Source: Candidatus Heimdallarchaeota archaeon
GTDB taxonomy: Archaea; Asgardarchaeota; Heimdallarchaeia; Heimdallarchaeales; Heimdallarchaeaceae
Assembly (NCBI GenBank): GCA_030603365.1
Contig: JAUVXV010000001.1
Location: 96,001-160,000 of the forward strand
Length of the DNA stretch: 64,000 nt
Direction of reading: 5' to 3'
Shown here in pieces: positions 4,469-38,668 of this stretch. Each line of letters opens with the position of its first letter. Positions within the stretch are counted from its first letter, which is position 1. The notes beneath the pieces were generated by a model that was given only the letters and a program-made list of their open reading frames with translations, made no database searches and was not told the DNA's origin. Both the position numbers and the translations under genes were made by a program.

Positions 4469-4593
4469 GTTCTTACTGCATTCTTCCTAATTTATTACTT
4501 TTAAAAATGTTTTCTTATAATTCCAAAAAAAAGAAGGAAAGGAATAGTAATAGATTAAAACACCCATACTTCTACGTTTATTATGGTGTTCAA

Positions 4594-4968
4594 ATGAGTT
4601 CTGAAGATGTTGAACTTGTCAATGAAGCTCTAGATATCTATTTTGAAGGGAATAAGGAGCTCAATGCTAAAAAGATCCTCTCTGTTTGGGATAAAGATTT
4701 GAAAATTATCTCAACAGAAAGAACACAAGGTCCTCAAGCTTGGATAGAAATGGAAGAACACTATAAAAAGGAAATAAACAATGATATGAGTAAATGGGAT
4801 ATAAGCTTCAACACTATCACCATAGATGTTTTTAGAAATTGTGCATCAGTTCGATTGGATGTGAAATATAAACTTGATTCCAAAGAATTTAGTGAAACTC
4901 AGTTTCTACACATGTTAAAGAAAGAAAGCACTTGGTTAATTTATAGTAAGATTTTTGTTTTTTACTAA
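4594..4968 (+). CDS. NTF2-like / lumazine-binding family protein
   Basis: Start taken at ATG 4594 because the ORF-track extension overlaps the tRNA; IDVFRNCASVRL...FLHMLKKESTWLIYSK pattern. Confidence 0.7.
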   Translation: MSSEDVELVNEALDIYFEGNKELNAKKILSVWDKDLKIISTERTQGPQAWIEMEEHYKKEINNDMSKWDISFNTITIDVFRNCASVRLDVKYKLDSKEFSETQFLHMLKKESTWLIYSKIFVFY

Positions 4969-28572: not shown

Positions 28573-29658
28573 ATGGGTGGAATACGAAGACAAAGAAAGA
28601 AAATTATGACTCCTGGTCATCCTTATGATAAAATTCGTATTGATCAGGAATTACCTTTAGTTGGAGAATACGGTTTAAGAAACAAAAAAGAACTGTGGAA
28701 AGCAAGAACTGTTCTATCTAAGGCTAGACAACAAGCTCGTGCTTTACTTGCACTTCCAGCAGATGTGAGAAAGCAACGAGAAAACGAATTACTATTTCGT
28801 TTAGCTAATCTTGGTGTGCTTCCTCCAGGTAGCGACCTTGACTCTGTTCTAGCGCTAGAGGTTCGTACTGTGTTGAATAGACGACTGCAAACCATAGTGT
28901 TTAGAAAAGGGCTCGCAAGTTCGCCTTATCAAGCAAGACAGTTTATTGCGCATAGACATATTGCTATTGAAAGAGCTGTTGTTACCTCTCCAGGACGTCT
29001 TATTAAAATCAATGAAGAAGAAAATATTGACTATGCTCCCCTATCTCCTATGCTAGAGAAATCACATCCTGCTAGACCTCAAGCACCTCCTGTTAGTGAT
29101 GAAGTGCCTCTTGAGAAGAAGGAAGTTCCTAAGAAGGAAGCTCCTAAACCCGAAGTTAAACCAGCTAAACCTGTTCCTAAGAAGGAAGTTGAAGCTCCTA
29201 AACCCGAAGTTAAACCAGCTAAACCTGTTCCTAAGAAAGAAGCTCCTAAACCTGAAGTTAAACCAGGCAAACCTGTTCCTAAGAAAGAAGCTCCTAAACC
29301 TGAAGTTAAACCAGGCAAACCTGTTCCTAAGAAGGAAGTTGAAGCTCCTAAACCTGAAGTTAAACCAGCTAAACCTGTTCCTAAGAAGGAAGTTGAAGCT
29401 CCTAAACCCGAAGTTAAAGCTGAACCTAAACCTCCAGCTAAACCTAAGGTTTCCAAAGTGGATGTTTCTGAAATAAAAGGCGTTGGAGCTAAAACTGCTA
29501 TGCTTTTGAAAGAGAATGGTTTTGATACTGTTAATAAAATTGCTTCTTCTTCTGACGAAGCTTTATCTAAAGTTCCAGGCATCGGTCCTGCTACTGCTAA
29601 AGCTATGATTAGTGAAGCAAAGAACATTCTGACCAAAGCTAAGGAGAAATCCAAGTAG
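28573..29658 (+). CDS. rps4: 30S ribosomal protein uS4 with Pro/Lys repeat linker and C-terminal HhH domain
   Basis: [28 protein letters not shown]; tail IKGVG...VPGIG. Confidence 0.95.
29116..29420 (+). repeat. 48/54-nt coding tandem repeat ((EV)EAPKPEVKP(A/G)KPVPKK), about 6 copies
   Basis: Near-identical GAAGCTCCTAAACCYGAAGTTAAACCAG... units. Confidence 0.93.
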
Positions 29659-29666
29659 GTGATTGT

Positions 29667-30341
29667 ATGAGTGAAGAAAAAGCTAAAACTAAACAAGAAG
29701 AAAAGAAGGAAGCAAAGCCGGATAAGAAGTCAGATAAGAAGTCAGATAAGAAAGCTGACGCTAAAGAAGACAAGAAAACTGACGCTAAAGAAGACAAGAA
29801 AACTGACGCTAAAGAAGACAAGAAAACTGATACTAAAGAAGACAAGAAAACTGACGCTAAAGAAGACAAGAAAACTGAAGCTAAAGAGGAAACAAAGCCA
29901 GAAACAACAAGAGAAGATTCTAGAAGATCAGAAGCAAGATCTCGAACCTCTAGAAGAGACTCTAAATATGGTGTCGCTCACATCTTTTCCAGTTACAACG
30001 ATACAATCGTTCATATCACCGATATCTCAGGCGCAGAAACATTCAGCCGTAAAAGCGGAGGAATGTTTGTGAAAGCTGACAGAAATGAGTCCAGCCCATA
30101 CGCAGCAATGAAAGCAGCAAACGCAGCAGCAATGGAAGCACAAAGTAAAGGAGTGTACCAACTGTATGTGAGATATAGGGCACCAGGAGGACATAAAAAT
30201 AGAACTCCAGGACCAGGAACACAAGCAGCACTAAGAGCACTGAAAAGATCAGGAATGAGAATACTAAGACTAGAAGACGTGACCCCACTTCCTCATGATG
30301 GGTGTAGGAGGAAGGGGGGCAGACGTGGTCGTCGAATGTAA
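29667..30341 (+). CDS. rps11: 30S ribosomal protein uS11 with N-terminal charged repeat extension
   Basis: [48 protein letters not shown]. Confidence 0.97.
29721..29885 (+). repeat. 12-nt (DKKS, about x3) then 24-nt (DAKEDKKT, about x5) coding tandem repeats
   Basis: GATAAGAAGTCA and CTGACGCTAAAGAAGACAAGAAAA units. Confidence 0.93.
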
Positions 30342-30378
30342 TCTCTCCTTTTTTATTTCTTTTTTCATTTTCATTTTT
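30342..30378 (+). terminator. T-rich terminator after rps11
   Basis: TCTCTCCTTTTTTATTTCTTTTTTCATTTTCATTTTT. Confidence 0.55.
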
Positions 30379-30429
30379 GTATTATTTGAGTTTATAATCT
30401 AATTTCTGTATTGAATGAATGAATATTAG

Positions 30430-30816
30430 ATGAATAGTGATTCAGAAACCATATTACATGTCTGTGACATTTGTCAGAAATCTTTCAAGCGGAGATATTA
30501 CTTGAATAGGCACATTGATGCTGTACATGAAAATCAAAAGGTTTTTAGATGCTCATATTGTAATTTTCAGACTTCAAGGAAAGATGCTTTGGATAGACAT
30601 GTTAATCAAATCCATATAACAAGCAGAGTTCATAAATGCAAAAAATGCGGGGAAACATTCAAGCAAATAGGAAATCTCTATAGACACACCAATACTGTGC
30701 ATACAACTGAAAAGAGATTTCAATGTAAAGACTGTTTTTCTTCTTTCTCAAGAAAAGATAATCTAGAGAGACACATAAAGAAATTTCACACATCAACCAT
30801 ATCAGAGGAATATTGA
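30430..30816 (+). CDS. C2H2 zinc-finger protein, 4 tandem fingers
   Basis: Four CxxC-x12-H-x4-H units with classical spacing. Confidence 0.92.
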   Translation: MNSDSETILHVCDICQKSFKRRYYLNRHIDAVHENQKVFRCSYCNFQTSRKDALDRHVNQIHITSRVHKCKKCGETFKQIGNLYRHTNTVHTTEKRFQCKDCFSSFSRKDNLERHIKKFHTSTISEEY

Positions 30817-31988
30817 GTATGAGCTCCTCTACGAAATCTAGTTTTGAATGTGAAATTTGTGGAAAAATACTCTCGAGAAAAGATTTACTTACACGTCATA
30901 TTAAGTCTGTACATCAAAAAATTAAATATCCATGTCCTGAATGCTCCTATGTTGCTAACAGACAAGATTATCTAAAACGTCATATGAATGAAGTGCATCT
31001 TAACCTTCGTTCTTATGTTTGTGAGTTCTGTGGGATGAAGTTTAATCAATCTGGAACTATGAACAGACATATAACAACAGTTCATAAGAAAGAGAGAAAT
31101 TATAACTGCCCTGAATGTGAACCTGTTTTTTCTCGTAAGGATCAGCTTCAAAGACACATAAGAGCTGTCCATCTAAATCTTCGACCTTATATCTGTAAAG
31201 AGTGCGGTGCCTCCTTTAAGTTACCCAACCATTTGAAGCAACATCACATATCTATCCACACTAACCAACGTAAATATGTCTGTGAGGAATGTGGTTTTGC
31301 ATTTAAGTTATCACAGCATCTTAACGATCATATCAAGGTTGTTCATCAAAATCATCGTCCTTACGTGTGTGAAGAATGTGATGCTTCTTTTCCCCATGCT
31401 CGTAATCTTAAGTTACACATCATTGCTGTGCATACTGATGAGAAACCTTACGTTTGTGAAGATTGTGGTAGAGGTTTTGCTGATCCTAGTCATTTATATA
31501 AGCATAAACAAGCTGAAGCTTGTTGGTTTACAACTACTACTGCTTACAAATGGGAGGAACTCTGTAAAGAGATAGCAGAGGTTTTACTAGCTGATGAAGA
31601 TTGGAAGTGGAAACCTAAGATAGACACTCCTGAGCTAAAGAAACAGAGCTGGATTCAGCCTGAAATAATTGTATACTACGAAAATAATACGAAAAGAATC
31701 ATTGATGCTAAGAGATCTACTCAAGCGATATTCAAGGAGAAGGATCTGGTAGTATATCCAAAAGTGGCTGAGAAAGTGGAGTTCTGGTGCCTCTATGGTA
31801 AAACTGAGGGAATGTTTGATGAAAAGGAGGAGATGGAGGCTAAGGGTAGTGAGGAGATTATTGCAGAGTTGAAGAAAAGGAAGAATAAAAGGAATAAGAA
31901 TTTGATTGGCAATCTGATAATGAAGGTTGAGATGCTAAAGAAAGGATTAGAATTCAAAGGACAGAGATTACTTATTGATTCTTCCTAA
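30813..31988 (+). CDS. 8-finger C2H2 array (7 C2H2 + 1 C2HC) fused to a putative PD-(D/E)xK nuclease-fold domain
   Basis: Fingers with linkers such as TDEKPY; C-terminus WEELCKE...IQPEIIV...IIDAK. Confidence 0.8.
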   Translation: MSMSSSTKSSFECEICGKILSRKDLLTRHIKSVHQKIKYPCPECSYVANRQDYLKRHMNEVHLNLRSYVCEFCGMKFNQSGTMNRHITTVHKKERNYNCPECEPVFSRKDQLQRHIRAVHLNLRPYICKECGASFKLPNHLKQHHISIHTNQRKYVCEECGFAFKLSQHLNDHIKVVHQNHRPYVCEECDASFPHARNLKLHIIAVHTDEKPYVCEDCGRGFADPSHLYKHKQAEACWFTTTTAYKWEELCKEIAEVLLADEDWKWKPKIDTPELKKQSWIQPEIIVYYENNTKRIIDAKRSTQAIFKEKDLVVYPKVAEKVEFWCLYGKTEGMFDEKEEMEAKGSEEIIAELKKRKNKRNKNLIGNLIMKVEMLKKGLEFKGQRLLIDSS

Positions 31989-32025
31989 TAGTAATAATCA
32001 AAATATATGTAAATGATGAATCTTG

Positions 32026-34503
32026 TTATTCGTTGGATCTTCTTTCTTCTTCATATTTTTGTAGAAGCTGCCCAGCTTCATCAATTGTGCTTTTTATTTC
32101 ATCTGGATAAAAGGAGTAGAACTGTTCAGCTAACTTGAACCATTTTCTCAATTCACTGAAAGGAATTTCAGTTTGATGAATTAGTAATTTAATTACGAAA
32201 TATGGCATTTCACCGCCTTTTTGTGGTAGTTGCTCTCTCAAAGACCAAGCAGTTGTATAATCTTTTAGAGCATATTCAACATTCTCTAATTCTGCATGAA
32301 ACTGTGCTCGATTATAATGCACTAATGCATTTTTATCATTTAAAACTAGTATTTTATTAAGCTCGTCAAATGCTTTTTCCTTTTCATCTAAACCCCAAAG
32401 TGTAAGTCCCCTATTTAGAATTGCCTCTTCATTCTCTGGTTCTAATTCTATGACTTTTGTAAGTAAATCATGGGATTCTTTAAGTCTTCCCAGCCTTAAT
32501 AATAGGGTTCCTTTGTTATTATAAGCTGTTGCATAGTTTGGATTTACTCTTATTGCACTATCATAATCTCTAAGTGCTCTGTTTGAATCTCCGCGTCTAG
32601 TATATTCTAGTGCTCTATTATTATAAGGATCCACATATTCAGAATCTAGTTCAATTGCTTTATTGTAGTCTTCCAATGCTCTTTCATACTGTTCTAAATG
32701 ATATAACACTCTACCTCTATTGTTGTATGCTATGGGGTCATTTTCATTAAGCTTAATTGCTTTATTATAATCATTTAAAGATTCAGCATGCTTTCCTGTA
32801 TCATCTAATACTTTACCACGATTAATATAGGCTTTTGTGAAATTGGGGTCTATTTCTAACGCCTTATTGAAATCATTAAATGCATCATCGTATCTTTTTA
32901 GATTTGAATAAACAATGCCTCTGTTGTTGTATGTGCTTGCGTTATTTGGATTTAGTGCAATTGCATTATCACACAATCGTAAAGCTGTTTCCCAATCACC
33001 AGTTCTTATATAAATAACTGATTTATTATTGTAAGGATCAGAGTTACTTGCATCGAGTTCTATAGCTTTATCATAATCTTCAATTGCTGAAGAAATGTTT
33101 CCAGTTTTTTGGTTTGCATTTCCTCTATTGTTGTAAATCCCTGAATTATTAGGATCTAAATCTATTCCTAAATTGTAATCTTCTATTGCTTTGTCAAAAT
33201 CCCCAAGCTTTTCGTATACATATCCTCTGTTGGAATAATAGTATGGAATACCGTCCTCTAAACCTATAGCTTTAGAAAGAACCTCAAGTGCCTTTTCATC
33301 AAAATTCAGTTTTAAGTAAGTAGCTGCCAATGAATTCAAATAATTTGATGATTCTTCTTTCTCAAAAAAAGACACCATAAAATTGAGATCCTCTATTAGA
33401 ACTTGTTTTTCTTCAGGATAATCCCATATTACTCTTTGCAAATAGATTTCAGGTATGATGATTTTTTCATCTTTAACTCTGTAGAAATCAGCAAGTTTTA
33501 GGTCAGTATAAATCTCTCTCCATTGATTTCCAACGGAAAAATGCTCTCTTGCAACTGTAGATAACAAAAGAACTGGAGGATTAAATATATTGGATATAAC
33601 AAAAATCTTTATTGCTTTAAGGAAATTTTTCTGTTTAGAATTCAAATTGTTATATTTCTTCTTTTTTGATACAGTGTCAAATACCAAATCACCAGGTTCT
33701 CCACTGTAATTGTCAATTTCAGTTTTTATTTCTAATAAGTCAGCTAGAATTCTCCATTCTGTTTTTGTTAATTCTGGTATCTCTACTCTATAAGGAAATA
33801 GTTTTTCGATATCGTCTCTTTCATCTAGAAATGCGTCTCTTCTAGCAATTGTTTTACCAGCAAGAAACCACTCTTCTGATTGGCAAGTACATATTAATTG
33901 GATATGACTAGAAATTTTCCTGTATTTCTGAATTACAGCATTTAAACTTGTACCTTCATTCAGAAGTTTTACCGTTATTTTATCTATATCATCAAATAAA
34001 AGAATGATGAAATTCCATTTCTTCATGAAGAAGTTGCGATAGGTTTTTTGATTGAAATCACTATCTTTATTCAATAAAATCAGTTTCGCTTTTTGAAAGC
34101 ATTTTGTTGTATTATCAACTTTCGCTTTATCTATTACTAATTTGCGAATAACTTCAATAGATGTTCTTGTTTTACCTCTAGCAATTGGAGCAACTACTCT
34201 AACATCATTTCCTCTTTTAAGTCTAGAGTATAATTCTCTCTCTCTTTTGTCAATAGAGACATATCTGGAATCCCATTTATCGAAAAACAAGCTAGACAGT
34301 TTTCTTCTGATTCTTTTCTTCTTATCTATTTTCTTCTTGAGATATTTTGTTTTCAAAAAAATACCATTGTTTTTAAATTTAATATAGTTTAAAATGCTTT
34401 TAGTAGGTATTGCTAATAATGGTGTAAAAATAGCACCTAAAATCGATCCTATTATGGTTGATGTCCAGTCTCCCATTCTTGTATCCCTGATTTTGTTATT
34501 CAT
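32026..34503 (-). CDS. N-terminal TM + degenerate P-loop NTPase + long TPR array protein
   Basis: APIARGKT, LLFDDID; about 11 repeats of the YNNRG...A..DY.KAIELDP type. Confidence 0.85.
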   Translation of the reverse strand: MNNKIRDTRMGDWTSTIIGSILGAIFTPLLAIPTKSILNYIKFKNNGIFLKTKYLKKKIDKKKRIRRKLSSLFFDKWDSRYVSIDKRERELYSRLKRGNDVRVVAPIARGKTRTSIEVIRKLVIDKAKVDNTTKCFQKAKLILLNKDSDFNQKTYRNFFMKKWNFIILLFDDIDKITVKLLNEGTSLNAVIQKYRKISSHIQLICTCQSEEWFLAGKTIARRDAFLDERDDIEKLFPYRVEIPELTKTEWRILADLLEIKTEIDNYSGEPGDLVFDTVSKKKKYNNLNSKQKNFLKAIKIFVISNIFNPPVLLLSTVAREHFSVGNQWREIYTDLKLADFYRVKDEKIIIPEIYLQRVIWDYPEEKQVLIEDLNFMVSFFEKEESSNYLNSLAATYLKLNFDEKALEVLSKAIGLEDGIPYYYSNRGYVYEKLGDFDKAIEDYNLGIDLDPNNSGIYNNRGNANQKTGNISSAIEDYDKAIELDASNSDPYNNKSVIYIRTGDWETALRLCDNAIALNPNNASTYNNRGIVYSNLKRYDDAFNDFNKALEIDPNFTKAYINRGKVLDDTGKHAESLNDYNKAIKLNENDPIAYNNRGRVLYHLEQYERALEDYNKAIELDSEYVDPYNNRALEYTRRGDSNRALRDYDSAIRVNPNYATAYNNKGTLLLRLGRLKESHDLLTKVIELEPENEEAILNRGLTLWGLDEKEKAFDELNKILVLNDKNALVHYNRAQFHAELENVEYALKDYTTAWSLREQLPQKGGEMPYFVIKLLIHQTEIPFSELRKWFKLAEQFYSFYPDEIKSTIDEAGQLLQKYEEERRSNE

Positions 34504-34648
34504 ATAATGTTATGGTTTTTTCTTTTAAATATATAGCTTTCAATTCTGCTTTTAGGTTGTCTAAGTATCAATAGAACTTAGTTTGTTTCTATCATAACGA
34601 GAAAAAACTGATTTAAAACAGCACCCTCTATCCTTTCTATACGTATAA

Positions 34649-34705
34649 GGTGGCCGTAGAGGCCGCAAAATGTAAAATCTACATTTTTCACTTTTTTTAT
34701 TTTTT
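34649..34705 (+). repeat. Orphan copy of rps11 3' end (GGRRGRKM*) plus T-rich terminator; att-like scar
   Basis: GGT GGC CGT AGA GGC CGC AAA ATG TAA versus rps11 GGG GGC AGA CGT GGT CGT CGA ATG TAA. Confidence 0.8.
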
Positions 34706-34761
34706 ATAGAGTATTATAGGTATCAGTTTTACTTAAAAGCAATGGAAGTGTATACTTCTAT

Positions 34762-35685
34762 ATGTTTGATCAACCAACAAGATTGGATGTTCTAAAAAAA
34801 CTACAAGATTTACAATACCCTTATACTATAGAAAAGATGCTCCAAGAACGTAATGAAAGAATTCAATATTCAAAAAAATATAAGGGACCTTCCGCTAGGC
34901 ATCATTGTTATGAGAGAATAGAAAAATACGAAAAAAATATTGAACTACTAAAAAATATTAGAAACAAGTTCAAAGGAAAAGAAATGCTTTCAATAGCTTT
35001 CTCAGCAAATGAGACCGAAGAGGAGATTTTAAAGAAAGTAAAAAAAATCAAAAAAAGCAGCGGTTCAGAGGAGTCAACGGTTAAAGCAAACGTTTTTCTT
35101 GATAAAAAGAAGAAGACAATTATAAAAAGAGCCTTTGAAATTTCTCTCTATTTCTCCCAAGGGTATGAGATGTACAAAACATCAATTGATATGAATATCA
35201 GTTCTAGTCCGATTATCGAGTATTATGCAATTTTACAAATTATTAAAGCAATTATTCTTCTTGAACTTGATGTAGATTCACACGAATTTTTCGGTGCTCA
35301 TGGATTGGAAAGAAAGAAAAGCAAAGATGGCGGTTCTATATTGCAAGTGAAAACAAAAACCTTTGGAGTTTTTGCATCTTTACTGCTTCGGACTTGTGGT
35401 TTCTCATTTAAAAAAGATGGATCAAAAGAATACGAGCTAGATAAATATTATAATAATTATTATCCTAAATTTGAGGACTTAATTGATAAAGAATCGCTAT
35501 ATCTTAGCACACCTGAAGCATTTATCTTTATATGGATTTTATCAGAAATAGCCAGATACCAACCTGAGAAGTGGAAGGAAATTTGCTCTGGTAGAGACAA
35601 TGACTGGATTAAAACTATAAACAATTTCAGAGAAGAAGGTATTCCCAAATTTTTCTTTGATTTGTTAAACTTTTATTGTAATTAG
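34762..35685 (+). CDS. YaaC-like family protein
   Basis: SPIIEYYAILQIIKAIIL...HGL and LSEIARYQPEKW motifs. Confidence 0.7.
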   Translation: MFDQPTRLDVLKKLQDLQYPYTIEKMLQERNERIQYSKKYKGPSARHHCYERIEKYEKNIELLKNIRNKFKGKEMLSIAFSANETEEEILKKVKKIKKSSGSEESTVKANVFLDKKKKTIIKRAFEISLYFSQGYEMYKTSIDMNISSSPIIEYYAILQIIKAIILLELDVDSHEFFGAHGLERKKSKDGGSILQVKTKTFGVFASLLLRTCGFSFKKDGSKEYELDKYYNNYYPKFEDLIDKESLYLSTPEAFIFIWILSEIARYQPEKWKEICSGRDNDWIKTINNFREEGIPKFFFDLLNFYCN

Positions 35686-35760
35686 ATGAATATGTAATTT
35701 GCTTTGATCATATCCATTAGTAAAGGAATCCAAATTTAATTTCTAAATTTCTTAGATTTG

Positions 35761-36966
35761 TTAATTGTGCTTTCCTTCCACAATGTTGCTTAAATAATCT
35801 GAAATTTGCAATTTATCTTCAGAAGTGAAACTATAGTCTGTGATTTCTAAAAAGAAGTTACACATGTTCTCACTGAAATCTAATGGCTTTGAAAATGGAT
35901 AATCAGAGAGAATATATTTAACCATTTGAGGAGTAATATCAGCGAATCTCTTATCTTTCAAACAAGCAATGATAAAATCCTCAATATTCTTTGCAATTGA
36001 ATTATGGACTTTTTTAACTTTTATCAATTCAATTAGTGCATTATAGAGTCTAACAAATATGCTCAACTCTTCTGATACAATGTAAGGTTTAATTGGAAGA
36101 AATTTTTTCGTTTTATTTTCCTTCTTACCCTTTCCCTCATTCAACAATAAATTCACAATATCTGCTTCTATTTTTAAAGTTGTTTCGTACATTGGTGCAA
36201 ATTGCTTAACTAAGTTATAGAGAAATGAGATCGCTGTCCAATATTTGGCGATAAACTCACCAATTGAAAGTTTTAGCTTATAATTTCTTGACTTGAAGAA
36301 TATTGTACTTTTTGTATAATTTATGTCTAATTCATCATGTTCCAAATCATGATCTATTGCATTTCTTATAACAGGTTTCAAGTATCTCAGATACTCAGGT
36401 ATTGGAGACTGTTTCCAAGCTTCTTTGAAAAATTCAATTAACTTAAAATTACTAATATCCTTGGCTTTTGGATTTTCTTTTATTATCTTATCTAGAACTG
36501 GATTTGTACCAGTAGAGTATCTTTTGATATATTTAGCATAAAGGTTTCTAAGCATCTTATTTACTAGAAATTCAAAATAATCTTTGTAGAAATTGAGGAA
36601 TATTCTTAGCGCCTTGGGTTCAATATCAGTAAAGAGTTTCTTGAAAGGAACAGTCTTTTTTTTATTTTTCTCCTTTTTGTATGAAGGTAAGGACATAATG
36701 TATAATAAATCCCTCATTTTCTCTACATTGCTTTCAATATCTCCTGTTAAATCTCTTGGATCAATATTCTCAACTCCAGAACCCAGTATTTTTTCTATAT
36801 TTCTTTGGAAAAGAGGGGGTGGTGTATAATTCAATCTTTTAAACTCATCAATTATGAATGCAACACTATGAAAGAATTTTTCCAATTCCTCGTCTCGCCA
36901 AATGTCAATTTGCTCAGCTGGAACTCCCTCAAACCTTGAAAATGAAATTTCATATTGTGTTTCCAA
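35761..36966 (-). CDS. Hypothetical protein with HEPN-like RxxxxH motif
   Basis: 401 aa, helical; IRNAIDH. Confidence 0.6.
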   Translation of the reverse strand: METQYEISFSRFEGVPAEQIDIWRDEELEKFFHSVAFIIDEFKRLNYTPPPLFQRNIEKILGSGVENIDPRDLTGDIESNVEKMRDLLYIMSLPSYKKEKNKKKTVPFKKLFTDIEPKALRIFLNFYKDYFEFLVNKMLRNLYAKYIKRYSTGTNPVLDKIIKENPKAKDISNFKLIEFFKEAWKQSPIPEYLRYLKPVIRNAIDHDLEHDELDINYTKSTIFFKSRNYKLKLSIGEFIAKYWTAISFLYNLVKQFAPMYETTLKIEADIVNLLLNEGKGKKENKTKKFLPIKPYIVSEELSIFVRLYNALIELIKVKKVHNSIAKNIEDFIIACLKDKRFADITPQMVKYILSDYPFSKPLDFSENMCNFFLEITDYSFTSEDKLQISDYLSNIVEGKHN

Positions 36967-37256
36967 GCTGAATCTATCTTTATCGATTCTACGTAAGTTT
37001 CCAGGAGTGCATACTGTGAGGGAATAGAGATAATCCTAGTCTGTTTGTTTACTTTTTGTTGCATTTTTAGTGACACTAACTATTTATTTAAAATTAAAAC
37101 TAAATAAACAATTTGTAGAATTTAATAATATTCCATTATACTATACATTAAGTGAATAGAACGTAGAACGCAATTTTACATTTTACATTTTTCATTTTTC
37201 ATTTTTCTTTTGATTTGGTATTATTCTTATATATTGAAATAATCTACCATTTCTCA

Positions 37257-37706
37257 ATGAATCTTGAAATCGATCTTTCTAAGCTCAATTACACATTCCA
37301 TCACAAACCTTTGCTTATAGGTGGAAAAGCTATGGAGTATTATGAACTCCGTAAAGCTGGTAGTGACATTGACTTAGTTTTAGCTCTTGAAGACTATGAA
37401 GGATTAAAAGAGATTTACCCAGAACCAGAGTATCATAGAGATTTATTTGGTGATCTTGGAGTTATAGTTCATGAATTCGAGCTTTGGAAATGTATATGTC
37501 TATTCAATTATGAATTTTTATCCGAGAAAGCAATAGAGAAGGAAGAATATTTAATCGTTTCACTGGAGAAATTACTCTTCTTGAAAGCTTTAGCAATGAA
37601 AGAAGAAAAATATCATAAGGATTTAGAACTTATAGTACAGAAAATCTTGAAAATTCAATATGAAACGGAACTGGATGAGAAATATAAGAAAGACTTGAAA
37701 ATGTAA
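37257..37706 (+). CDS. Nucleotidyltransferase-fold protein
   Basis: LLIGGKAM...GSDIDLV (GG..DxD); start taken at ATG 37257. Confidence 0.7.
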   Translation: MNLEIDLSKLNYTFHHKPLLIGGKAMEYYELRKAGSDIDLVLALEDYEGLKEIYPEPEYHRDLFGDLGVIVHEFELWKCICLFNYEFLSEKAIEKEEYLIVSLEKLLFLKALAMKEEKYHKDLELIVQKILKIQYETELDEKYKKDLKM

Positions 37707-37718
37707 ATGCATAAGACA

Positions 37719-37772
37719 AGCGGTTGTAAATGCCGTAGGATGTAGGTTTTCTACAATTTCACTCTTTTTTTA
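37719..37772 (+). repeat. Degenerate orphan copy of rps11 3' end (SGCKCRRM*) plus terminator
   Basis: AGC GGT TGT AAA TGC CGT AGG ATG TAG then TCTACAATTTCACTCTTTTTTT, similar to the sequence after the 34649 copy. Confidence 0.65.
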
Positions 37773-37831: not shown

Positions 37832-38668
37832 ATGTCTATTGAGAAAATCAAAGAGAATATTTATGCTATAACTGATGGTAGCACTCGAGGCAATGTTGTT
37901 GCATATGTTCTACCTAGTCAGATAGTTTTTGTTGATTCCGGTATGCATATCCCTCTAATAAAGAAATTTAGAGAGCATATTGAGCGAGAAACAGGAAAGA
38001 AAGCTTCTGTTCTCTTTATAACTCACGCTCACGGAGATCATGTTTTCGGTAATCAGATCTTTGAAGATTGTGAAATCATCACTTCTGAGTTAACCCATGA
38101 AGCAATGGTTGATTCACAGAAGAATAATTGGACTCCAGAAGCTTTAGAAGATTGGAAAAAGAATTCAGAAGACCCTTTAGCTTTGGATGGATTAAAGATC
38201 GTTCTTTCTAACAAAACATTTGCAGATGAATATGAGTTAGTAGATGGAGATGTAAAAATTATCGCAAAGAGAACAGGAGGACATACAGAGGGATCTAGTT
38301 ATGTTTACTGTCCCAATTACAAAGTATTATTTGCGGGAGATAACTTATTTAACAAACAGTTTCCTTGGGGTGGGCCACCTTCTGCTAACCCAATTAAGTG
38401 GATAGCTGCACTAAAGGAATATCTCTCTCTTGATGTGGAACATTATATCCCTGGTCACGGTCAAATTTCTGATGAAGAACCGATAGAGGAATTTCTAGAT
38501 TATCTTGAAGAAGTCACATCACTTATGAAAGAGCAAATAGCGACCGGAAAAACAGAAGATGAAATTCTCAAATATGCTGAAAAGATTGAATATTATCCCC
38601 CTCGAGAAGGAAGAGAACAGTGGAAAATTGCTACTTTAAAGAAATGGTATGAAGTCATTGTTAATTAG
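37832..38668 (+). CDS. Metallo-beta-lactamase fold hydrolase
   Basis: THAHGDHVFGN, GHT, FAGD, PGHG. Confidence 0.92.
   Translation: MSIEKIKENIYAITDGSTRGNVVAYVLPSQIVFVDSGMHIPLIKKFREHIERETGKKASVLFITHAHGDHVFGNQIFEDCEIITSELTHEAMVDSQKNNWTPEALEDWKKNSEDPLALDGLKIVLSNKTFADEYELVDGDVKIIAKRTGGHTEGSSYVYCPNYKVLFAGDNLFNKQFPWGGPPSANPIKWIAALKEYLSLDVEHYIPGHGQISDEEPIEEFLDYLEEVTSLMKEQIATGKTEDEILKYAEKIEYYPPREGREQWKIATLKKWYEVIVN

Follow-up and report, generated by a model that had tools for sequence, protein, structure and literature searches.

The 64,000-nt stretch of Heimdallarchaeota DNA analyzed here (the window; part of contig 1 of a 3.65 Mb genome and the reference for all coordinates without a prefix) carries a variable gene array directly behind rps11, the gene for ribosomal protein uS11. 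With slightly better than even confidence, we interpret this array as the work of a re-targetable natural zinc-finger nuclease gene drive in Asgard archaea: eight canonical C2H2 fingers would recognize wobble bases in an essential ribosomal protein gene, strains would exchange blocks of fingers and thereby retarget it, a nuclease-free partner would protect the host allele, and repair scars would build an integron-like array without a recombinase. The gene order is rps13-rps4-rps11, a four-finger gene, an eight-finger gene, and genes for a TPR protein, a YaaC-like protein, a 401-aa protein, a nucleotidyltransferase (NTase)-like protein and an MBL hydrolase. The live rps11 gene (29667–30341, plus strand; Pfam PF00411, E 1.6e-42) ends in a tail encoding GGRRGRRM-stop followed by a T-rich terminator-like tract (30315–30375, plus strand). 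Next comes ZF1 (30430–30816, plus strand), a candidate protector with four C2H2 fingers (Pfam zf-C2H2) and no nuclease, whose helices fit the host's rps11 allele. The zinc-finger nuclease (ZFN; 30813–31988, plus strand) combines eight C2H2 fingers, whose helices avoid the host allele, with a C-terminal domain of about 150 aa that has a PD-(D/E)xK fold and the motifs WE..PE..DAK. Homologues of the zinc-finger protein carry the labels Heimdallarchaeota or Heimdallarchaeaceae. Below, G0xx denotes genomes of the family (G000 being that of the window) and L0xx denotes loci.

When finger helices were set beside the rps11 ends of their hosts, they fitted the bottom strand over the codons T-P-L-P-H-D-G-C, each finger centered on a wobble base. 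The predicted footprint of the eight fingers in the window is 24 bp long (30283–30306, minus strand; codons T-P-L-P-H-D-G-C(-R), finger position 3 facing the wobble base), and the four-finger protein is predicted to fit 30283–30294 (GAG GAA GTG GGG) on the bottom strand. This register was first spotted by eye and was therefore tested in four ways. It ranked 1 of 284 in a code-free test of whether variable residues face variable bases (rho 0.77), and was also first of 284 by the match at finger positions -1 and 6 (82% vs 56% for the next). A top-strand register (fingers 8-5 on GGN GGN CGT AGA) that looked plausible by eye scored far below the bottom-strand one. The footprint pattern has four exact matches in the genome, one of them at rps11.

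Nuclease-free arrays match the rps11 allele of their host and nuclease arrays avoid it. In the discovery set, scored with a general finger code, the nuclease-free arrays matched their own wobble base in 53/53 cases; with one locus per lineage, the true array-allele pairing was the best of 120 permutations. Four held-out loci, analyzed with code and register fixed beforehand, gave 18/18 wobble matches (6.6 expected), and the own allele was uniquely best each time. A later test with a published table (PMC3607563) found 34 of 35 exact triplets of nuclease-free arrays in the own allele vs 9.1 expected (9/9 in held-out loci), as against 0/23 for the nuclease arrays, where 5.7 were expected. Wobble entropy peaks in the target codons, and the target segment is twice as divergent as the DNA flanking it. 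This segment co-varies with fingers 1–4 (rho 0.37, p 0.001) and both are uncoupled from the MBL gene (0.06 and 0.07), which the nuclease half, near fixation in the genus, does track (rho 0.60). Of the 32 loci, 16 encode a nuclease-free protein of the ZF1 type.

The C-terminal 150 residues of this protein place it in a family of 90 clusters whose consensus is WE..PDI..IIDAK; in an alignment of 18 ZFNs, E, P-E and D-x-K do not vary. A first fold built with 18 close sequences (pLDDT 58, uninformative matches) was superseded by a model from 68 sequences with a pLDDT of 91.5. Top structural matches of this model were nearly all of the restriction-endonuclease-like fold (best Z 8.3, rmsd 3.7 over 119 residues), and AF1548 (Z 8.3), Can1/Can2 (8.1), McrC (7.3), BspD6I (7.1) and FokI (6.2) included no single strong match; Foldseek returned McrC, Card1 and R2 retrotransposon proteins (R2 E 1.4e-3 to 1e-2). 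Pfam and PDB sequence searches with the domain gave no match, Pfam detected no LAGLIDADG, GIY-YIG or HNH domain in the ZFN, and the ESM Atlas gave only a weak PDDEXK_3 lead. As modeled, the C-terminal domain of the ZFN has the PD-(D/E)xK fold and a catalytic-type motif, and its activity is predicted.

Homologues of the domain also occur away from rps11. The window genome has a second copy (L078:2618-4207, or G000:C3:42617-44206; 41% identity, with EIK in place of DAK) in which the domain follows a different N-terminal region that lacks C2H2 fingers, and G008, G012 and G013 have similar copies. A further homologue in G012 (G012:C175:19063-19512; 45%, in a 385-aa frame), whose genome also has the rps11 cassette, may target another gene. 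At L081:3320-4531, a distant eight-finger nuclease homologue (P0034) adjoins a tRNA-Met-like gene at about 4590-4702 on the minus strand, missed by ARAGORN and with a T arm that contains an insertion; of the finger sites predicted in this 7 kb locus, the best (4 mismatches; no chance comparison) overlaps the tRNA 5′ end.

Downstream of the fingers lie three orphan copies of the rps11 end, each with a T-tract and all on the plus strand: orphan 1 (29 nt, 34647–34675; with tract to 34705), orphan 2 (decayed, about 12 nt left, 37162–37173; to 37210) and orphan 3 (26 nt, decayed, 37720–37745; to 37772). The tail copies read and lie as the earlier note had described, including the 18/27 nt identity of the live end and the orphan at 34649. 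Across the 3.65 Mb genome, GGRRGR[RK]M-stop is encoded at two places, one being the rps11 end (30315) and the other 34649. General repeat finding in the window did not recover the tail copies. A 27-nt nucleotide profile made from relatives' rps11 ends was scanned over 7.3 million genome positions and ranked 34649 first (41.8 bits), the live end second (36.5) and 37719 third (21.6), followed by a site of 16.5 bits. With the T-tract added, the live end and the three orphans all fell within the top five positions of the genome, the weak module proposed at about 37141-37200 ranking fifth with its end at 37173. Because all four modules rank so high, the motif is not scattered over unrelated intergenic sites. 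Orphan 2 has the same position, before the NTase-like gene, as clear orphans in G009, G005, G021, G007, G017 and G010. Of the four exact genome matches to TCTACAwTTT(T)CACT, two lie at orphans of the window.

The orphans are former rps11 ends that were displaced together with the DNA once downstream of them. The earlier note had taken the orphan at 34649 for a synonymously recoded copy; the relation is the reverse, and the recoded copy is the live rps11 end, because the orphan is identical to other strains' rps11 ends at 25-26 of 27 positions vs 18/27 for its own gene. The last ~65 nt of live rps11 are a swapped-in, synonymously recoded end common to G021, L083 and G024 and unlike that of the genus majority. 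Orphan 3 is nearest to the G018 tail (22/27 identical). Nor does decay grow outwards as had been supposed, the scores running 41.8, -0.7 and 21.6 bits from the inner to the outer orphan. The genus-majority tail contains a 9-nt tandem repeat (GGCCGTAGA twice); in a minority that includes the window genome (30315–30341), the repeat is fully recoded beyond the putative cut, which may limit loop-out between tail copies.

We compared 22 loci of the genus, 20 of other genera or families, and metagenome loci. Finger genes directly follow rps11 in 30 of the 32 genus-level loci that have an rps11 end, the exceptions being G018 and G003, and the ZFN is also absent from G041 and G042. In all, 28 orphans, one of them weak, were found in 19 loci. 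Cargo differs widely between strains, with no cargo ORF common to all loci. The empty allele of G018 aligns with G012, G013 and L082 over rps11 and then from their orphans onwards at 92–95%; these three are fills of one allele type, with different cargo and with junctions 29, 21 and 21 nt before the end. L083 is a simpler form of the window locus, without the 5.2 kb from the TPR gene to the 401-aa gene. These empty/filled pairs and the varied cargo bear out the earlier proposal of serial insertion at the rps11 end, in which every insertion brings in a fresh end and terminator and moves the previous ones downstream, and we therefore take serial insertion as shown. An empty allele joining rps11 to the MBL hydrolase had been predicted; the empty allele exists, with an acyl-ACP thioesterase gene between the two. 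No finger genes or orphans followed rps11 in the loci of other genera or families, in six of which the tail pattern was not located. The single-contig genomes G045 and G046, which we take to be the Heimdallarchaeum genomes for which the earlier note mentions integrase elements at the rpsK tail, have no cassette at rps11.

Orphan left ends lie 9–31 nt before the end of the stop codon; none is longer than 31 nt and none contains the footprint. The footprint itself ends 36 nt before the rps11 end, with the nuclease domain pointing downstream, and the longest orphans start at 29–31 nt. The putative cut zone is placed between the two (30307–30312).

Several loci of relatives stand out in other ways. 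L074:573-3354 holds two orphans along with a cassette and tail of the genus-g1 type, although its chromosome is 94–96% identical to G042 (genus g10); G041 and G042, the relatives of this chromosome, have the empty allele, and L074 is a likely transfer between genera. In L049 (G010), the ZFN at 1267-2430 is interrupted by an in-frame stop, and rps11 shows four amino-acid changes within the footprint and past it; these are repair scars or assembly errors. Cargo ORFs at L075:378-1673, at L049:3899-4171 and before the NTase-like gene of G005 (L032) continue into an orphan tail in the same frame and end at its stop codon, thereby gaining a piece of the uS11 C-terminus.

The earlier note had explained the array as integron-like and run by a recombinase acting in trans or lost. 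This is not supported at the site, where no recombinase was seen, left ends vary, and the ZFN cassette is always first after rps11 and never pushed down the array. No match to PF00589 (tyrosine recombinase) or PF00239 (serine recombinase) was found on any rps11 contig of 31 genomes, the family genomes being drafts of 72–95% completeness. The called genes of eight metagenome loci at the rps11 site likewise include no integrase. PF00589 was found in 12 of 24 genus relatives and was not found in the incomplete drafts of the orphan-carrying G001, G007, G008, G010, G012 and G013. The window genome has one tyrosine recombinase and five resolvase-family genes, all away from the site. Its tyrosine recombinase (L079, G000:C11:22584-23672; 362 aa) lies among housekeeping-like genes, and a strong match similar to it was found in G002 only. 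Wu et al. 2022 (PMC8813620) contains no rpsK/rps11 integrase site of the kind mentioned in the note for Heimdallarchaeum. The tail modules are coding-sequence ends with T-tracts, at which a repeat search found no inverted repeat (no attC model was run). Pfam annotation of the called genes of the metagenome loci showed no TnsA, TnsB or TnsC (no dedicated family search was made). Four public runs, whose contigs at the site were of relatives only, gave no clean circle joint, and their thin coverage of the cargo is not informative. The single backward joint, from 34675 to 30345 with 16 other letters, was rejected as a circle; it matches an ordinary G012-type rps11 end.

The insertions are probably driven by the ZFN and not by an integrase, the nuclease being predicted to read other strains' rps11 versions. 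We consider it likely that a homing-type natural ZFN replaces the rps11 end by a resistant one and shifts earlier ends downstream. The array would then be the footprint of a selfish cassette composed of a resistant rps11 end, an optional nuclease-free finger protein and the ZFN. On an encounter of the locus with another strain's DNA, the nuclease would cut a sensitive rps11 about 30–35 nt before its end, near 30307–30312, and the left side would be repaired by homologous recombination with the donor rps11 and its resistant end. In a recipient that already has a cassette, the right crossover would fall in the conserved nuclease half, and therefore only the target codons and fingers would be swapped and no orphan left. 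In a recipient without one, the old tail and terminator would be joined, with little homology, where donor copying stopped, giving an orphan plus donor cargo. Cassette loss followed by re-invasion would stack several orphans. The broken ZFN of G010 and the ZFN-free alleles of G003 and G018 are consistent with a loss phase, as is an orphan of the window that precedes the upstream region of YaaC; in three relatives this gene comes after the ZFN. Since ZF1 fits its own allele, it probably sits there and shields it, a role that we offer as a guess from that fit.

Several points weigh against this mechanism. Finger binding and nuclease cutting are predictions from sequence and model. The register was first seen by eye, and p-values overstate the case because the loci are related. 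Fingers 6–8 fit less cleanly, none of the alleles compared is a full fit to the nuclease array of the window, and the deficit of held-out nuclease arrays is modest (6/21 vs 9.0 expected). The rps11 clade has PE where distant relatives have PD, and no Foldseek match reaches E 0.001. Recoding of the live tail extends past the putative cut, which the mechanism leaves unaccounted for, and it offers no route of entry for donor DNA. At one and the same junction, behind the NTase-like gene, 26 nt remain in the window and 19 nt in both L083 and G010; judged from such comparisons, later erosion may account for some of the variation in orphan left ends.

Three other explanations were weighed. The finger pair could be a host self/non-self system, acting in allele-specific restriction or kin exclusion and not spreading itself, while orphans arise from ordinary DNA uptake, with rps11 homology as the anchor at one end and an illegitimate join at the other. 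That ZF1 matches its own allele and the ZFN avoids it fits this equally well, and the nuclease half largely tracks the host and is near fixation. However, the orphans stop exactly short of the footprint, as expected from a cut there, a g1-type cassette sits in a g10-like chromosome with empty relatives (L074 vs G041 and G042), and empty and broken alleles exist; we regard this explanation as unlikely. Integrase-less accretion, integron- or CIME-like, in which a trans-acting site-specific recombinase uses an att core in the rps11 tail and the fingers are passengers, appears to us quite unlikely. Tandem integrase-less elements are known at 3′ ends of ribosomal protein genes in Streptococcus (PMC7563491), the orphans do partition the cargo, many of them start near -19, and G000 has the recombinase and resolvase genes elsewhere. 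Against these stand the lack of a recombinase on any rps11 contig, the six orphan-carrying genomes in which PF00589 was not found, and the differing joints (-29, -21 and -21) of the G018-type fills. Accretion should also push older first units down the array, but the finger cassette is never displaced and no finger remnants followed any orphan examined; it further leaves the finger-to-allele fit unexplained.

It is very unlikely, in our assessment, that the C-terminal domain is inactive and that the finger proteins either regulate the ribosomal protein operon or guide some other enzyme to its target. PE stands in place of PD, similarity of fold alone shows no activity, and Asgard Tn7 elements do target via C2H2 fingers (10.1101/2025.07.27.667033). 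Yet the E, P-E and D-x-K residues are invariant across the aligned ZFNs, a regulator should match its own DNA and the ZFN arrays avoid theirs (0/23), and the loci showed no transposase gene.

The orphans divide the cargo of the window. An 825-aa TPR protein (32026–34503, minus strand; Pfam TPR_1, E 1e-70) is a singleton, found at the rps11 site in the window genome only among the compared loci. Orphan 1 is followed by the YaaC-like gene (34762–35685, plus strand; PF14175, E 2.9e-18), which lies directly after the ZFN in G004, G008 and G012, and by the gene of the 401-aa protein with no assigned family (35761–36966, minus strand), whose single homologue among 30 relatives is at a different locus. 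The NTase-like gene (37254–37706, plus strand) is present at the rps11 site in 9 genus relatives. Of the labels given in the earlier note, TPR and YaaC-like are supported by Pfam, NTase by a weak DUF2204 match (E 0.06), and HEPN-like by no Pfam or PADLOC match. The conserved host gene for the MBL hydrolase (37832–38668, plus strand; PF00753) bounds the variable region. On the other side, rps4 is extended at its C-terminus (within 29070–29650) by Pro/Lys-rich tandem repeats, after which come helix-hairpin-helix motifs, and rps11 is extended at its N-terminus (within 29667–29950) by DKKTDAKE-type repeats, an extension whose length differs between strains.

R2 retrotransposons carry zinc fingers and a restriction-like endonuclease and target 28S rDNA. 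They share with the present system a natural pairing of fingers and a PD-(D/E)xK domain aimed at a conserved translation gene, but they have a reverse transcriptase and none was seen here, where repair is presumed to be DNA-templated. Engineered zinc-finger nucleases, with a C2H2 array and a FokI domain (PMC3607563), have the same architecture, and FokI is among the fold matches (Z 6.2). The natural helices nearly equal published modules (RKDNLER/RSDNLAR for GAG, QIGNLYR/QSGNLAR for GAA, RKDALDR/RSDALTR for GTG; PMC3607563); unlike the engineered proteins, the present one is natural, has eight fingers and is unrelated to FokI in sequence. In the mORF endonuclease elements of fungal mitochondria (Allomyces macrogynus atp6; Glomus atp6, atp9, cox2 and nad3; PMC3630166), as here, an endonuclease gene brings a diverged replacement 3′ end of the host gene and the native end, closer to relatives' genes than the live end is, is left downstream. 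The rps11 locus also has the nuclease gene beside its target and absent from empty alleles. mORFs have LAGLIDADG or GIY-YIG nucleases, whereas here a tandem C2H2 array is joined to a PD-(D/E)xK domain and has a nuclease-free partner; the setting here is an archaeal chromosome, with short (9–31 nt) orphans, cargo and several stacked scars.

We also liken the system to the free-standing homing endonucleases of T4-like phages (seg and mob; intronless homing and marker exclusion; PMC2988022), in which an intergenic nuclease cuts the neighboring conserved gene of a related genome and co-conversion spreads the resistant allele; those enzymes are GIY-YIG or HNH, with no duplicated gene end and no swappable fingers. 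CIME accretion and integron arrays (PMC7563491) resemble it in their integrase-free tandem units at a ribosomal protein gene 3′ end, but here no integrase was found at the site, the crossover point is not fixed and the first unit always keeps its place. The Asgard Tn7-like elements whose TniQ carries C2H2 fingers, and which have TnsABC and 5-bp target duplications (10.1101/2025.07.27.667033), are likewise Asgard mobile DNA with C2H2 arrays beside conserved target genes; neither TnsABC nor such duplications were seen here (no dedicated family search). A literature search, with most subscription papers outside it, found no description of natural Asgard zinc-finger nucleases or of an rps11 cassette.

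The 3′ end of uS11 is mosaic in this genus, a warning for its use as a phylogenetic marker. If the nuclease cuts as predicted, engineered zinc-finger nucleases would have an equivalent in nature, and homing endonucleases would gain a new class whose target is readable from its sequence. About 45 natural finger arrays paired with their DNA would allow the C2H2 code to be tested directly in the setting of an arms race, and the scars would be a second route to gene arrays that look like integrons. Tandem C2H2 arrays would then serve selfish DNA in a lineage close to eukaryotes, which would bear on the origin of the eukaryotic zinc-finger expansion.

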